NCBI RefSeq assembly: GCF_024256425.1
Contig: NC_071110.1
Coordinates: 2,599,451 to 2,663,450 of the forward strand
Source: Clarias gariepinus
Taxonomy: Eukaryota
Length of the DNA stretch: 64,000 nt
Direction: 5' to 3'
This document shows positions 16,887 to 64,000 of the stretch, one piece after another. A program made the translations under genes and the position numbers. The number at the start of each line of letters is the position of its first letter. Within the stretch, counting starts at the first letter, position 1. The notes beneath the pieces are model-generated. The model saw only the letters and a program-made list of their open reading frames with translations. It did no database searches and was not told the DNA's origin.

Positions 16887-17416
16887 CTATTTTGGATCAC
16901 ATAACTTCATAGGGGAATCATAACTCCATATAGAGAACCCAGCATACAGAGGCTGAGTGAATGTGGTGTGCACTGTGTGGAGGAGGCTCATCGTGTCAGG
17001 GACGCTGTAGAAGGACAAAGTTCCTGCATTGTGATCTACATACACTCCTATCCTGGAGGACGCTGAACCTTGGAGCTCAGTTATAATGCTATTGTGCCGG
17101 AAACAAACAGAGGAAGAAGAACACTCCAGACTCCAAGATTGACTGTTGCGTCCAAACCTACACTCTTTGCCCTCTCCTTTTCTGCTGATCTCTTTGTATG
17201 AGACTGATATTTCCACACCAAACCCGCTCCACTCCACCTCCCAGTAACAGCGTCCACGCATACTCTCCTTACACAAGACCTGAGGCCAGGAGTCAAATCT
17301 CTCTGGATGATCAGAGTATCCTTGCTGTTTCCTACTGAGAGTTACATCTCTGTTGTTTTTAAATATAAAGAGTTTGCAGTTTGCTGTGTTGGGATCCAGA
17401 GTCAGATAATTAAAAT
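16887..17416 (-). CDS. finTRIM-like locus 1, B30.2/PRY-SPRY exon (…DFNYLTLDPNTANCKLFIFKNNRDVTLSRKQQGYSDHPERFDSWPQVLCKESMRGRCYWEVEWSGFGVEISVSYKEISRKG…RIGVYVDHNAGTLSFYSVPDTMSLLHTVHTTFTQPLYAGF…*).
   Basis: Canonical B30.2 motifs (LDPNTA, CYWEVEW, SYKxIxRKG, GVYxDHxAGTLSFY). Acceptor tttcag|ATTTTAAT at ~17417. Confidence 0.75.
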
Positions 17417-17462
17417 CTGAAACAACAAAAGTGTCCTTAGGTTAAATATTAATCACAGAATC

Positions 17463-17503
<41 letters not shown>

Positions 17504-18012
17504 GCACCCACGCTGTAGAAAATCTTCTCTACTTTTTGGTTTTGAGAGTGGAATCATCAGAACGGCTGCAATTGTAGAAAATAAGAATATGAAAATTATA
17601 TAAATATAAACAGGTTAAAGCATCAACATGAAATGTCAAATTCTTCACTGGTTTTCGTGTCACATTTTTGTAATTAAATTCTGGCGACTTTTCTCCATAA
17701 GGCTGATCTATGTTCATAGTTATGCAAATTTACAAGGCTAATGGTAATACTGTGTGTAGGGAATATTTTATTTCTGGTGTGTTTCATAATGTCTCAATGC
17801 ATGAGAACAGATTGTTGTCTTTCTTTTACCTTGACACGCTGCACTATCAATAAACACATTCCATAGTATAGTTTGTGTTATGGGTCGTTACTGCTGAAGG
17901 CTCGTAAATGCAGAACTACTCCCACGTTTCTGTTCTTCTTCACCTTATCTTTTATAAACATTCCAGACCAGTGTTTACCATGTAAACCCTCCTGCATCCT
18001 CCTTTTTGGTGC

Positions 18013-18045
<33 letters not shown>

Positions 18046-18254
18046 ATATATATATATATATATATATAGTTTCATTGGGAGGTAACATGTCCAGGCGGGA
18101 CAAGCAGAATACCAAATTCCAAAATACCTACCAAAATTCAAGAAATCCTTACACTCTGACTTTATCCAGTCTTGTTTCTGCTTCTTCCTTATTTTTGTTG
18201 GATTAATTTCATGTCTTTCTTCACTGTGATGCAGAACAAATGTTTGTTTCGTTA

Positions 18255-18379
18255 CCTTGTGGACAGATTTTGTTGAATTCCTCCACACAGATTTCCTCGA
18301 CTTGTTTTTTCAGATCTGAGAGAGATTTCCTCACTTCATCAAATGTGAGATGTTGATTGACAGTGAAGCTGGGTGAGTC
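18255..18379 (-). pseudogene. finTRIM-like locus 1 internal exon with a 1-nt insertion relative to the paralogs (…SDLKKQ|G|RGNLCGGIQQNLST instead of SDLKKRVGEICEEEFNIIHPQ).
   Basis: Locus 1 reads CTCGACCTTG at 18297-18306. The paralogous exons at 29082-29202, 42511-42634 and 58437-58560 read CTCGACTCG / CTCGACCCG / CTCGACTTG and stay in frame. The exon is 125 nt here, against 121 or 124 in the paralogs. Confidence 0.55.
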
Positions 18380-18603
18380 CTCACATCCAGGAGAAGCACA
18401 GAGAGACGGGAAACTCTACAGAGAGGAAACACATCATAGAGAAGGAGAAAAGTGTAGGAGAGGAACGAATGAATCTCAGACTGAATCAGACCAAAGACAC
18501 ACTTGTGATCTCAGACAGGAACATTTATTGTCGCTGTAATGAGCTTTTAGGAGGAAACTTTGTGAGGAACAGCGCCCTCTGTAGATCAGACAGTGAGTGT
18601 TAC

Positions 18604-18837
18604 CTGGAGGAAGTGGATGTGATCGTGTGTGTGTGAAAGCTGCTCCAGCTCAGTGACTCTCCTCTTAAGATCAGCAATCTCCTGCTCCAGTTGCGTCAGG
18701 AGTCGTTCAGCTCGACCCAGTTCAGCTTTCTCCTGAGCTCTGATGAGCTCCGTCACCTCTGAATGCTTTTTCTCCATGGAGCTGATCAGCTCAGTAAAGA
18801 TCCTCTCATTCTCATCTACTGCTCTCTGTGAACGCCT
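18604..18837 (-). CDS. finTRIM-like locus 1 coiled-coil exon (RRSQRAVDENERIFTELISSMEKKHSEVTELIRAQEKAELGRAERLLTQLEQEIADLKRRVTELEQLSHTHDHIHFLQ).
   Basis: Heptad-rich; acceptor gttgacag|, donor CAG|gtaacac; 234 nt, phase 0. Confidence 0.7.
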
Positions 18838-60799: not shown

Positions 60800-61500
60800 T
60801 GAAAGGACAGTTTTAAAACTATGTCTATTATCTCTTACATTACAACTTTAATGATCTCAACCAATCTGGATTCAGTGGCACATTTCACAGAGACTGCTCT
60901 TCTTTTAGTCACTAGGAATCTCCATGATGCTAGATCAGCTAAACTATCATCTGTTTTGATCCTCCTGGACCTGTCAGATGCATTTGACACAGTAAACCAC
61001 ATCAGAGTTACCATCTGTGTAACTCAAGCAGAGTAAAACTGAACTGCTGTTCATCCCTAGCGACTCAAACCCAGTTTAAGACCTTGCAATATCCCTGGAC
61101 AACAATCAGATCACTCCTTCAGCCACTGTCCGAAATCTTGGTGTAACTGAGGCCAATTATCTGTTATTTTCACTACACATTGCTAAATTTACTTGCTTTT
61201 GTCATTTTTTTCTTTACAACATCAGGAGAATCAGCCAATTTCTTTCTTCACAAGCTACTCAGGTGCTTGTTCAGTCTCTTGTTATTTCAAGACTGGACCA
61301 CTGCAACTCACTCCTGGCAGGTCTGCCTCTGTCTACATATTTGTCCAATGCAGCTGATCCAAAATGTTTTTAACCTTCCAAAGTTCTTCCACACTACCCC
61401 ACTTTTCCGCTTCTTGCACTGGCTTGTAGCTGCCCGCATCAAATTTAAAACCCTGGTTCCTGATCCTACCAAGCTAAAAATGGCCCAGTAACCACTTACC
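60800..61500 (+). mobile_element. LINE reverse-transcriptase fragment (…LLDLSDAFDTVNH…).
   Basis: The RT domain-2 motif (LLDLSAAFDTVDH) of L2/RTE-type non-LTR elements. Confidence 0.6.
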
Positions 61501-62135
61501 TCTCAGCTCCAATGACATCACGCACCACACCATGTTTTCTCCAATTCTCCAGCACTGTTCGTCTGGTCCAACCATCTCTCAGGGTTCAAAGAAGACATTC
61601 ATGCAGACTCTTTTCAGTTCCAAGGTGGTGGAATGAATTTCATCTAGATGTCTGTATAGCTGAGTCTTTGACTGTCCTAATCAACAACTCAAGACGTATT
61701 TGTTTCTTCAGTACCATAAATCTCTTTCCCATCTGTGTTTGATTGATGGCACTTAGTTGGTAACCTAGTAACCCGATGTACAGTACGTATCTATCCAATG
61801 ACAAAAACTTCAAACTCATTCAATGTGACAACTTCAATGTGAGCTCTTGTGACAGTTTTGTAAGTCACTCTGGATAAGAGCGTCTGCCAAATGCCTAAAT
61901 GTAAATGTAAATGCTTCACGTCAATGTAACCTGAATTCTCTGGACACTGTTTCACCCTGACACAGCAGATTTAAGCCAGTCATTTAACAGTTTCTTACAA
62001 ACAATCCATTAATACTAACTAGAAATTCACTTATTCATTAAATAATGAGGTTATATCAAATTAAACTTAAATTTATCATTTCATTTATCATAACATTTAT
62101 TATAAATAGAAATTAGATCACAGACAAGTTCTCAC

Positions 62136-62708
62136 CATACTGGTTGAACCAAATGTGTTGCCTGCTTGTTTATCCATCGTACACAAATACAAGTTGAAGC
62201 TTTGGTCAGTATGACAGTGAGTCTCCTTTACTTCATCATGCTGAGAGCAGATCTTCTCTTGGAGATCTGCACAGGCTTCCACTAACTTGTGCTTCTTAAA
62301 GGCAGGAGACTGATAGTGAGGTTTAAGATGATCTTCACAATAGGAGGTCTGACACACGAGGCAGGAATTAACAGCTTTGTGTTTTCTCCCAGTGCAGGAA
62401 TCACACTCCACATCTCCAGGTCCAGCGTAACAGTGAGCAGGAGAAGCAGCTTGGAGTTCAGACTTCTTCAGTTTCTCCACCATTTCACCTAGCGTGTTGT
62501 TCCTGCGTAGATCAGGCCTTGGAGTGAAAGTCTCTCTACACTGGGGACAGCTGTAGACTCTCTTCTGATTTTCCTCATCCCAGAAACGATTAATACACTT
62601 CTTGCAGAAATTGTGACCACAGGGAGTAGTCACTGGAACATTCAGGAGATCCAAACAAACTGGACAGCTGAACTGATCCTGATCTACTGAAATACCTGCC
62701 TCTGACAT
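62136..62708 (-). CDS. finTRIM-like locus 4 RING + B-box exon with a canonical C3HC4 RING (MSEAGISVDQDQFSCPVCLDLLNVPVTTPCGHNFCKKCINRFWDEENQKRVYSCPQCRETFTPRP…CDSCTGRKHKAVNSCLVCQTSYCEDHL…).
   Basis: All RING ligands present; donor ATG|gtgaga after …GSTSM. The upstream in-frame extension to 62792 runs through a (GAGA)n repeat and is probably not coding. Confidence 0.75.
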
Positions 62709-62733
62709 TTTATGGACTGATACACTGACAATG

Positions 62734-62764
<31 letters not shown>

Positions 62765-62815
62765 AATGCAGCTTATCTAAGAGCTCATCCACTCTGAGGA
62801 TTATGAGTTTCGTTT

Positions 62816-62827
62816 TCTCAGAAATAC
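62816..62827 (-). promoter_or_regulatory. ISRE (GAAAACGAAACT) 5' of locus 4. GGCGTGGCTTTAAAA is at 62883-62898.
   Basis: Exact consensus match. The same two-motif arrangement occurs at loci 1 and 2 and at the truncated fragment. Confidence 0.6.
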
Positions 62828-64000
62828 GCTTCCTGGTTGTGTGTGTGTGTGTACAGTGTGTCAGAGAGCTTGGGCGTGGCTTTAAAACAGGAGGAAGTTA
62901 AGGCTTTAAGGTAAAGGTGTTGGGGTTTTGTCTTTTTGGCATATAAAACTTTGAATTAAATGATTTTTCTTACCACATACTGCAAATTAAAAAAAAGTTT
63001 ACAGAAGCATTTAAACTGTAAGTGAAAAAGAAAAAAAACAAGAAAATGTAAGACAAAAACGGCAAAACATGAAAGGCAGCTTCATAAGGATATAACTAAA
63101 CAAATTATACAAGGGAACCATACTTAAACAAGGGACCATAAAAAAGGAAAAGCTGAGACAAATATAACAGCCATAATAATCTGTTTCGTTTAAGTCCCTA
63201 TCCTGGTCCTAAGTCTTTTTCCCTCTTCTCCTTACATCTCTCTATGATTCATTTGTTCAAGTGAACTCACAGTTCGTTAAGAAAAAAGTCAAATCAAATA
63301 TGAAAAACTGTGTAAAAAAAACAAAACAAATGGATATCCTTTTTTTCTCTACTTTTGACATCCTATTATTCAAAAATAAAAGTAAAAATGGAATTCACTA
63401 CATTCAGGACCTGAGAAGAACACAGGAGAAATTGTGCCAGTCCCAAGGATGACACTCCCAAAAAATGGCTTTTTTCTCTGACATCCACCTAGTGTTATTA
63501 TTATTATTTTGGGTAGTTGGGTAGTTAACGAGTCCCATCTACTCCGTTACATTTACTTGAGTAACTTTTTCAAAAAATGTCCTTATACGAGTAGTTTTAC
63601 TGCACCATACTTTTTACTTTTACTTGAGTAGATTTGTAAAGAAGAAACGCTACTCTTACTCTCCTACACTCGGCTACACTCGACTCGTTACTTTTCTAAC
63701 CAATTGTTCTACATATGTCGCTAGTAGATTTAGCGCCTGTTTCACCAATCAGATGCAGTAACAATAATCACATGACTTCCGTTTAACCAATCAGCCGCGA
63801 TAACAGTAACCATATGTAGTCACATGACCAAACCCAAACTGGCAGCACATGTGCATCCCAGGAATCATATAAAAAGCATGTTTAGCTTGCAGAAGCTATA
63901 TACAGCATCATACTGCGGTGCCTTCTCTATCTGCCAAACAATGTATATACATACTGTATATCCTGTACTACGTGTGTAAAAATGAATTAATAGTTTATTA

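Follow-up and report, generated by a model that had tools for sequence, protein, structure and literature searches.

A chimeric gene within a finTRIM-type tandem cluster of Clarias gariepinus

The DNA analysed here (the window) is a stretch of 64,000 nucleotides of Clarias gariepinus, contig NC_071110.1, positions 2,599,451 to 2,663,450. Within 46 kb of it there are four loci of the finTRIM (ftr) type, which we number L1 to L4, together with two relics, all on one strand (minus). One of the four genes, L2, is a junction chimera, in which a RING/B-box/coiled-coil part (RBCC, exons 1-4) of the L1 type is joined to an exon 5 and a B30.2 exon of the L3 type. Six-frame open reading frames (ORFs) and tblastn with catfish TRIM proteins gave five RING/B-box (RBB) and four B30.2 matches, every one on the minus strand. 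Because the tblastn E-values of the large exons were from 1e-62 to 1e-122, a chance match was excluded for these exons. The middle exons were found by peptide search and splice-site reading, and the spliced models were assembled from these. The exons of the four loci are as follows.

19949-20524, minus: L1 exon 1 (RING-like, B-box1, B-box2), 576 bp; ORF and tblastn, ATG at 20524, GT donor
18963-19058, minus: L1 exon 2 (coiled coil), 96 bp; AG/GT sites, phase 0, size equal to the ftr norm
18604-18837, minus: L1 exon 3 (coiled coil), 234 bp; TRIM_CC 181 bits
18256-18415, minus: L1 exon 4, 160 bp
17512-17565, minus: L1 exon 5, 54 bp; acceptor AG 6 nt downstream of the mutated canonical one (AG>AA)
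16887-17416, minus: L1 exon 6, B30.2 (PRY/SPRY) and stop codon
31058-31639, minus: L2 exon 1 (RING-like, B-boxes), 582 bp
29786-29881, minus: L2 exon 2, 96 bp
29427-29660, minus: L2 exon 3, 234 bp
29082-29238, minus: L2 exon 4, 157 bp; 3 bp shorter than in L1 through an in-frame deletion
28541-28591, minus: L2 exon 5, L3 type, 51 bp
27746-28275, minus: L2 exon 6, B30.2, L3 type; 97.9% nt identity to L3
46366-46953, minus: L3 exon 1 (RING His32>Arg; B-box2 C165S and H184Y), 588 bp
42849-42938, minus: L3 exon 2 remnant, 90 bp; acceptor CAT
42511-42670, minus: L3 exon 4, 160 bp
39817-39867, minus: exon 5 at the L3 position, 51 bp
39020-39552, minus: B30.2 exon at the L3 position
62136-62708, minus: L4 exon 1 (intact RING), 573 bp; 18-nt deletion at the exon end
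59549-59626, minus: L4 exon 2, 78 bp; 18-nt deletion
58437-58596, minus: L4 exon 4, 160 bp; no exon 3 upstream
58204-58233, minus: L4 exon 5, cut down to 30 bp
55968-56491, minus: L4 exon 6, B30.2

The spliced models of L1, L2, L3, and L4 were 549, 549, 473, and 454 aa long, respectively, and the spliced coding sequence (CDS) of each locus (1365-1650 nt) contained neither a stop nor a frameshift. All junctions were GT-AG except the acceptor of L3 exon 2 (CAT instead of CAG), and the splice sites were usable throughout L1, L2, and L4. A search of L3 and L4 did not find the 234-bp coiled-coil exon in either locus, and exons 2 and 4 of L3 are only 178 bp apart with no exon 3 between them. The models of L1 and L2 were equal, residue for residue, to the Clarias gariepinus RefSeq proteins XP_053363946.1 and XP_053363947.1 (both 'TRIM16-like', on a 34.46-Mb chromosome), respectively, and the exact match to XP_053363946.1 confirmed the splice choice at L1 exon 5. 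The L4 model was identical to XP_053363949.1 (RefSeq 'TRIM11-like') and to KAM9469298.1, which comes from a haplotype annotation that was run separately. That annotation was built from ab initio, protein, and RNA-seq evidence (Clarias genome paper); the paper nowhere mentions TRIMs.

Exact look-ups in the protein collection placed none of three alternative L3 models on record, and no protein containing L3 exon 1 was found among the guessed models. The same look-ups returned no cross-locus splice products (the gene outside the window that is described below with the tails of L1, L2, or L4; the L4 head with the L3 tail; the L2 head with the L1 tail) and no read-through short isoforms. Rfam and tRNA scans gave nothing belonging to the L1-L4 genes. 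In the haplotype-1 annotation, KAM9469718.1, an 'uncharacterized protein' of 1104 aa at 16887-31639, fuses L2 and L1, continuing past the L2 B30.2 into the ORF that immediately precedes the L1 ATG; this fusion is probably an annotation artefact. (CA)n microsatellites begin a few bases from the exon-5 donor in L1 (17480-17511) and in L4 (58170-58203), and a further one follows the exon-2 donor of L4 directly.

An earlier sequence-only reading of this DNA had described four finTRIM-type loci and a fragment as a tandem cluster on the minus strand, and the ORFs, the tblastn matches, and the exon plan bear this out. Its coordinates for the eight large exons (RING/B-box and B30.2) were right to within 1 nt, and all eight are open frames on the minus strand. 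It had also placed coiled-coil exons after each RING exon, which is fully true of L1 and L2 (96 and 234 bp) but only in part of L3 and L4, where exon 2 is shortened and the 234-bp exon is missing.

Studies in zebrafish and rainbow trout have shown that ftr genes have exons of 555-594, 96, 234, 154, 60, and approximately 545 bp (van der Aa et al. 2009, PMC2657112). In the cluster described here, the corresponding sizes were 573-588, 96, 234, 157-160, 51-54, and 524-533 bp, with exceptions at exon 5 of L4 (30 bp) and exon 2 of L3 and L4 (90 and 78 bp). The first exon, which encodes the RBB, was 576, 582, 588, and 573 bp in L1-L4, inside the published range, and the domain order was kept. The 96-bp and 234-bp coiled-coil exons of the plan were matched exactly in L1 and L2, while L3 and L4 have an exon 2 of 90 and 78 bp, respectively, and no exon 3; two short linker exons followed by a single B30.2 exon were found in all four loci. 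PRY and SPRY were above the Pfam cut-offs at 4/4 loci. The homologues were catfish 'TRIM16/25-like' proteins with 75-84% identity, and some homologues are named at source as finTRIM family member 14/16/67 or 'fish virus induced TRIM' (62-65% identity in the RBB). On the exon plan and the names of these homologues, we file L1-L4, which RefSeq names TRIM16/25/11-like, as ftr-type genes; the names 'TRIM16-like' and 'TRIM11-like' conceal this. The closest solved structures were those of mammalian TRIM25 (RBCC, E = 4e-62) and TRIM16 (PRYSPRY, E = 3e-34), yet the identity to catfish ftr-type proteins (75-84%) is far higher than that to any TRIM of mammals, and orthology of L1-L4 to TRIM16 or TRIM25 is unlikely.

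The cluster resembles the zebrafish and trout ftr genes (PMC2657112) in its six exons of near-identical sizes, in the order of RING, two B-boxes, coiled coil, and B30.2, in being a tandem cluster that holds pseudogenes and truncated copies, and in recombination, for which breakpoints within the RBB and B30.2 regions have been reported. It differs in three respects. The RBB and B30.2 trees of zebrafish ftr genes were reported to be highly congruent (PMC2657112), whereas here there is one clear RBB/B30.2 chimera. In addition, the two best-preserved genes here have a point-mutated RING predicted not to ligate, and two loci lack the 234-bp exon.

The chimera can be seen in the identities between the loci. 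The nucleotide identity of exon 1 was 96.0% between L1 and L2 and 76-80% in the other pairs, and that of the B30.2 exon was 97.9% between L2 and L3 and 78-81% in the other pairs. The near-identical 5' exons of L1 and L2 and their clearly different B30.2 exons (78.9% nt) had already been recognised by the sequence-only reading; the relationship of the L2 and L3 B30.2 exons had gone unnoticed in it. It had proposed a comparison of RING and B30.2 trees, and we built bootstrapped neighbour-joining (NJ) trees of the exon-1 and B30.2 proteins with 33 outgroup proteins. The exon-1 tree contained (L1,L2) with a bootstrap of 100, and the B30.2 tree contained (L2,(L3,XP_053363944.1)) with a bootstrap of 100, where XP_053363944.1 is a RefSeq protein to which we return below. 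The topologies were thus incongruent, with full bootstrap on both conflicting nodes, which indicates that reassortment of B30.2 between duplicated units is real.

The same reading had suggested that the B30.2 of L1 was closer to that of L4, through exon shuffling or gene conversion of this domain. The reassortment stands, but its partners are L2 and L3, not L1 and L4, and its cause is tandem duplication. An exchange specifically between L1 and L4 is hardly credible. Both B30.2 exons end in LCDPK, the highest aa identity of L1 is marginally with L4 (70.7%, against 67.8% with L2 and 66.7% in the third L1 pair), and both stand in one four-sequence NJ clade; however, this clade has a bootstrap of 30% and includes two other catfish proteins. 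At the nucleotide level, L1 is equidistant from all the others (approximately 78.5%): L1-L4 identity (78.5%) is not above that of L1-L2 (78.9%), and the L4-L2 pair reached 80.7% nt and 70.1% aa. Moreover, the dS of L1-L4 (0.69) is the largest among the pairs, and L1-L4 homology ends at the exon edges. We considered an L1/L4 exchange effectively refuted by the dS, the identities, the bootstrap, and the lack of flank homology.

Self-alignment of the window showed how the L2 gene is put together. Nine collinear blocks, covering exons 4-1, promoters, intergenic DNA, and exons 6 and 5, relate 18191-29009 to 29015-40287, which indicates a tandem duplication of approximately 11 kb with the following parts.

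18191-29009: duplication unit Y, containing L1 exons 4-1, intergenic DNA, and L2 exons 6-5; nine collinear blocks with unit X
29015-40287: duplication unit X, containing L2 exons 4-1, intergenic DNA, and L3-position exons 6-5
29009-29015: duplication junction in L2 intron 4, 67 bp downstream of the exon-4 donor; the sole novel adjacency
27672-29009 (against 38942-40287): high-identity tract with exon 5, exon 6, and introns

At the junction, L2 switches from an intron 4 of the L1/L3/L4 type to the sequence found at L3 40287. The introns 4 of L1, L3, and L4 remain mutually alignable for approximately 40 bp beyond the point where L2 departs, and the junction alignment showed no extended homology at 29009/29015; the departure of L2 while the other three stay alignable favours a non-homologous junction over in-register unequal crossing-over. 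We believe that the cluster is an ftr-type tandem array under birth-and-death evolution, in which the L2 chimera came from the 11-kb duplication and conversion patches were added later, and we put the probability of this reading at roughly 75%. The segment of approximately 11 kb that was duplicated in tandem had one end in intron 4 of a gene of the L1 type and the other in intron 4 of the gene at the L3 position, two neighbouring paralogues. L2 formed at the junction, and short tracts would have been homogenised afterwards, most clearly around exon 5 and B30.2 of L2 and L3.

The anti-Lepore haemoglobin hybrid gene is the product of homologous unequal crossing-over. The L2 gene shares with tandem-duplication junction chimeras and with anti-Lepore the position of the hybrid (5' part of the downstream gene, 3' part of the upstream gene) between its parent genes, and the intronic location of both breakpoints, so that the frame is kept. 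An origin of L2 by non-allelic homologous recombination, that is, by unequal crossing-over between misaligned L1- and L3-type genes at exon 4 or intron 4, would give exactly this order of upstream gene, hybrid, and downstream gene, and L1, L2, and L3 are 90-92% identical over approximately 330 bp around exon 4, which is enough for misalignment. But the L3 counterpart of L1 18191 is 42444, yet L2 continues as L3 40287, 2.16 kb off, and since L1, L3, and L4 can be aligned past the departure of L2, these 2.16 kb are not simply a later insertion in L3. On the junction alignment we set this origin aside as quite improbable. Unlike anti-Lepore, L2 has no homologous register at its junction, and this suggests that the duplication was non-homologous or replication-based.

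The later patches were read from the non-coding DNA. Non-coding identity was 96.4% in the exon 5/B30.2 tract (754 sites) and 92.6% outside it (2627 sites; Fisher p = 1e-4), and a core of approximately 700 bp in the tract was 99% identical. Two stretches without a mismatch, 259 bp at 28507-28765 and 185 bp at 20034-20218, were longer than the permutation maximum of 172 (2000 permutations). We read these stretches and the tract as later gene conversion; rate heterogeneity or a nested second event may instead have produced the uneven identity. The greater similarity of the exon 5/B30.2 tract than of the remaining duplicated DNA could also suggest that L2 is a whole-gene duplicate of L1, whose 3' end was overwritten from L3 by conversion or ectopic recombination with no 11-kb duplication at all. 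This is very unlikely: the L2-L3 homology is collinear for approximately 5 kb past the B30.2 stop and then runs into L1/L2 promoter homology in one 11-kb register, self-alignment showed no homology between the 3' flanks of L1 and L2, and intron 4 of L2 switches abruptly at 29009/29015 without homology there. We therefore prefer the segmental duplication with later patches.

Mobile DNA is also present in and around the duplicated units. A Tc1/Sleeping-Beauty-like DNA transposon with terminal inverted repeats of approximately 200 nt lies at 33753-35364 in the L3-L2 intergenic region and is missing from the duplicate unit; two ORFs that overlap each other, 34120-34542 and 34520-35032, make up its split transposase (HTH_Tnp_Tc3_2, HTH_SB, DDE_3). 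A foldback-like element with inverted arms of 154 nt was found at 49890-50944, and a related copy at 24208-24653 lies inside a 3.3-kb stretch of unit Y that is absent from unit X.

The domains were scored with Pfam, and the zinc-ligand columns were read from an alignment with 289 homologues, in which conservation of the eight RING ligand columns is 97-98%. The zinc ligands of RING and B-box2 were both complete in 0/4 loci; neither this nor the missing coiled-coil exon of L3 and L4 had been mentioned in the sequence-only reading. In both L1 and L2, the RING ligands read C-C-R-H-G-C-C-H (C30R, C35G, C57H), further conserved residues are changed (Ile39>Ser, Trp43>Gly), and the RING scored 17-18.6 bits, below the cut-offs of 21-30 bits. 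The remaining domains of these two genes were recovered: B-box (37.7 bits), full coiled coil (TRIM_CC 163-181 bits), PRY, and SPRY. The L3 and L4 loci scored well for RING, PRY, and SPRY; the RING ligands of L3 read C-C-C-R-C-C-C-C (His32>Arg) and those of L4 are complete. Pfam gave no B-box match in either locus, and the TRIM_CC match was partial in L3 (37.7 bits) and under the cut-off of 30 in L4 (27.5 bits). Two B-box2 ligand columns are changed in L3 (C165S, H184Y) and three in L4 (C173L, H181Q, H184N). The RING His>Arg change of L3 also occurs in the same context (PCGRSFCKVC) in Ictalurus punctatus 'TRIM47 isoform X2', and because this channel-catfish protein shares it, the variant may be older than Clarias and not a recent lesion.

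From the lost ligands we infer that L1 and L2 would be unable to serve as RING E3 ligases. The TRIM family includes members that are naturally RING-less, such as TRIM16 and TRIM14, and TRIM16 functions without a RING. By analogy, L1 and L2 are probably RING-independent adaptors or regulators; alternatively, they would act as partners or competitors of RING-competent paralogues. They differ from TRIM16 in that they come from RING-bearing ftr genes and lost their ligands secondarily. According to what is known of TRIM proteins, the products would dimerise through the coiled coil, which is possible for L1 and L2 only, and would bind ligands by the B30.2 domain. The L4 RING could still recruit an E2, although the usual TRIM dimer would not form in a protein that lacks the coiled coil and has an eroded B-box2.

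Besides the four loci, the cluster contains two relics.

21829-22367, minus: truncated L4-like relic, comprising the promoter region and the first approximately 50 codons of the RING exon
49637-49711, minus: orphan exon-4 relic; tblastn 60% identity over 25 aa, E = 2e-6 (E = 1e-4 in a second search)

The truncated fragment reported earlier is real: the coding part of the L4-like relic (21981-21829) is 93.5% identical to L4 in nt and has a TAG at codon 36, and approximately 390 bp of its upstream DNA are also L4-like (88% nt). The orphan exon-4 relic was absent from the earlier list.

Motifs resembling the interferon-stimulated response element (ISRE) were found upstream of several of these start codons.

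20566-20577, minus: ISRE-like GAAAACGAAACT, 42 bp upstream of the L1 ATG
31681-31692, minus: ISRE-like motif, 42 bp upstream of the L2 ATG
22054-22065, minus: ISRE-like motif, 73 bp upstream of the ATG of the L4-like relic
62806-62817, minus: ISRE-like motif, 98 bp upstream of the L4 ATG

The ISRE core GAAAACGAAACT has 5 exact matches in the window against 0.22 expected, and four of them are paralogous copies at homologous promoter positions; the core was not found upstream of L3. Because the motif lies 42-98 bp upstream of the ATG in L1, L2, and L4, their products are predicted to be interferon-inducible. This fits the zebrafish and trout ftr family, which is virus- and interferon-inducible (PMC2657112). 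Upstream of L3, a 21-bp minisatellite (AGTAGGTGAGATAGGGGTATT, 47397-48750) begins 443 bp from the start codon; it has approximately 65 copies, a higher-order period of 457 bp, and a strong G skew.

Selection was evaluated from synonymous (dS) and non-synonymous (dN) divergence. In exon 1 of L1 and L2, there were 13.5 synonymous (Sd) and 9.5 non-synonymous (Nd) differences, giving a dS of 0.122, a dN of 0.021, and a dN/dS of 0.17 (one-sided binomial p = 2e-4); residues 79-192 contain just one replacement. Exon 4 behaved neutrally (dN/dS approximately 1-1.5), and the pairwise dN/dS of whole B30.2 exons was 0.25-0.47. The RING lesions are older than the L1/L2 split because the two genes share them, and the constraint on the lesioned exon 1 since that split argues that L1 and L2 encode working proteins without RING ligase activity. 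It might be supposed instead that all four loci are decaying pseudogenes, with residual frames and annotated proteins that are pipeline artefacts: zinc ligands with 97-98% conservation in the family are missing from each locus, L3 and L4 are without the main coiled-coil exon, the exon-2 acceptor of L3 is broken and this locus is without an ISRE, relics lie nearby, and exon 4 is neutral. We believe that this is improbable, since the CDS of every locus is free of stops and frameshifts over 1365-1650 nt, the splice sites of L1, L2, and L4 are all usable and their ISRE is kept, and exon 1 of L1 and L2 shows the low dN/dS and the single replacement given above. For L1 and L2, the pseudogene reading was rejected on their open frames, intact splice sites, and exon-1 dN/dS; L3 and L4 may still be pseudogenes. 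The 5' exons of L3 are most likely dead.

The 3' exons at the L3 position have a second possible owner. Exon 5 and the B30.2 exon at 39.0-39.9 kb were 100% identical to residues 361-554 of XP_053363944.1 (isoform X2): exon 5 (39817-39867) corresponds to residues 361-377, and the B30.2 exon (39020-39552) to residues 379-554. Isoform X1, XP_053363943.1, shares residues 1-360 with it but has a different exon 5 and B30.2, and these residues (exons 1-4 of both proteins) are not encoded in the 64-kb window. The two exons might thus be an alternative 3' cassette of this finTRIM gene outside the window and not a part of L3. The complete identity and the shared residues 1-360 in front of another B30.2 favour this; so do the presence of both isoforms in the Hap1 annotation, the trees, in which the RBB of XP_053363943/44 and the 39-kb B30.2 adjoin the same Ictalurus and Ameiurus proteins, and the apparently dead 5' exons of L3. 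We nevertheless consider it doubtful, because it needs an intron of at least 24 kb across the separately annotated L4 gene, and because the order of the RefSeq accessions (43/44, then 46 for L1, 47 for L2, and 49 for L4) suggests that the gene lies beyond L1. This order hints at a third, protein-identical copy of the cassette elsewhere on the chromosome. A bolder version, in which the 39-kb cassette is spliced to a distant intact RBCC, and the RING-dead, constrained L1 and L2 with their two B30.2 domains are decoys or regulators, is improbable; if true, it would mean combinatorial RBCC and B30.2 diversity beyond gene duplication. A possibility of this kind was weighed and then rejected for trout in the original finTRIM paper (PMC2657112).

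Several points weigh against the history of duplication and conversion that we propose and against the gene models on which it is built. The pairing of the L3 RING exon with the 39-kb B30.2 is unproven, as the protein sequence of this B30.2 equals the C-terminal end of XP_053363944.1, a protein that has its exons 1-4 beyond the window. The match to RefSeq models shows only that automated pipelines arrive at identical models. The non-coding identity between units X and Y is uneven (88-97%), so that a single event followed by conversion is our interpretation and two nested events are possible. The dN/dS of 0.17 stands on 23 substitutions between two paralogues. Finally, the L4-like relic (21829-22367) occurs in unit Y only, which a simple duplication model leaves unexplained; either the relic entered unit Y once the duplication had taken place, or unit X lost its copy.

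Two further elements were found in the window. Downstream of L1, a 247-aa ORF at 11328-12071 (minus) has a strong integrase-core match (Pfam PF24764 rva_4, 282 bits) and presumably belongs to a mobile element. The 3' element of a UnaL2 LINE (long interspersed nuclear element) lies at 61847-61900 (plus) in intron 1 of L4 (Rfam RF00436, 59.5 bits against a gathering threshold of 55).

The primate TRIM5/TRIM22 genes form a tandem immune TRIM cluster, and TRIMCyp arose through retrotransposition of a foreign domain. The catfish cluster is similar in that the variable C-terminal recognition domain can be swapped while the RBCC stays. Unlike TRIMCyp, it was a paralogous B30.2 that was recombined here, by segmental duplication, and the catfish genes have no known antiviral activity. 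The cluster belongs to a known family, is already auto-annotated, and does not overturn current views of that family; this is birth-and-death evolution by an ordinary route, in which the chimera and the constrained RING-dead pair are of modest interest. For RefSeq annotation, the consequence is that two annotated proteins, those of L1 and L2, are predicted to be incapable of acting as RING ligases. The cluster offers a clean, datable case of an immune TRIM family reshuffling its recognition domain, where one segmental duplication with intronic breakpoints would have produced an in-frame gene, L2, joining an existing RBCC to the B30.2 of a neighbour. The loci have also eroded in contrasting ways: L1 and L2 lost the RING yet remained constrained, whereas L3 and L4 kept the RING and lost the coiled coil and an intact B-box2. 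This contrast can be used to ask which TRIM modules finTRIM function needs in the antiviral defence of fish.

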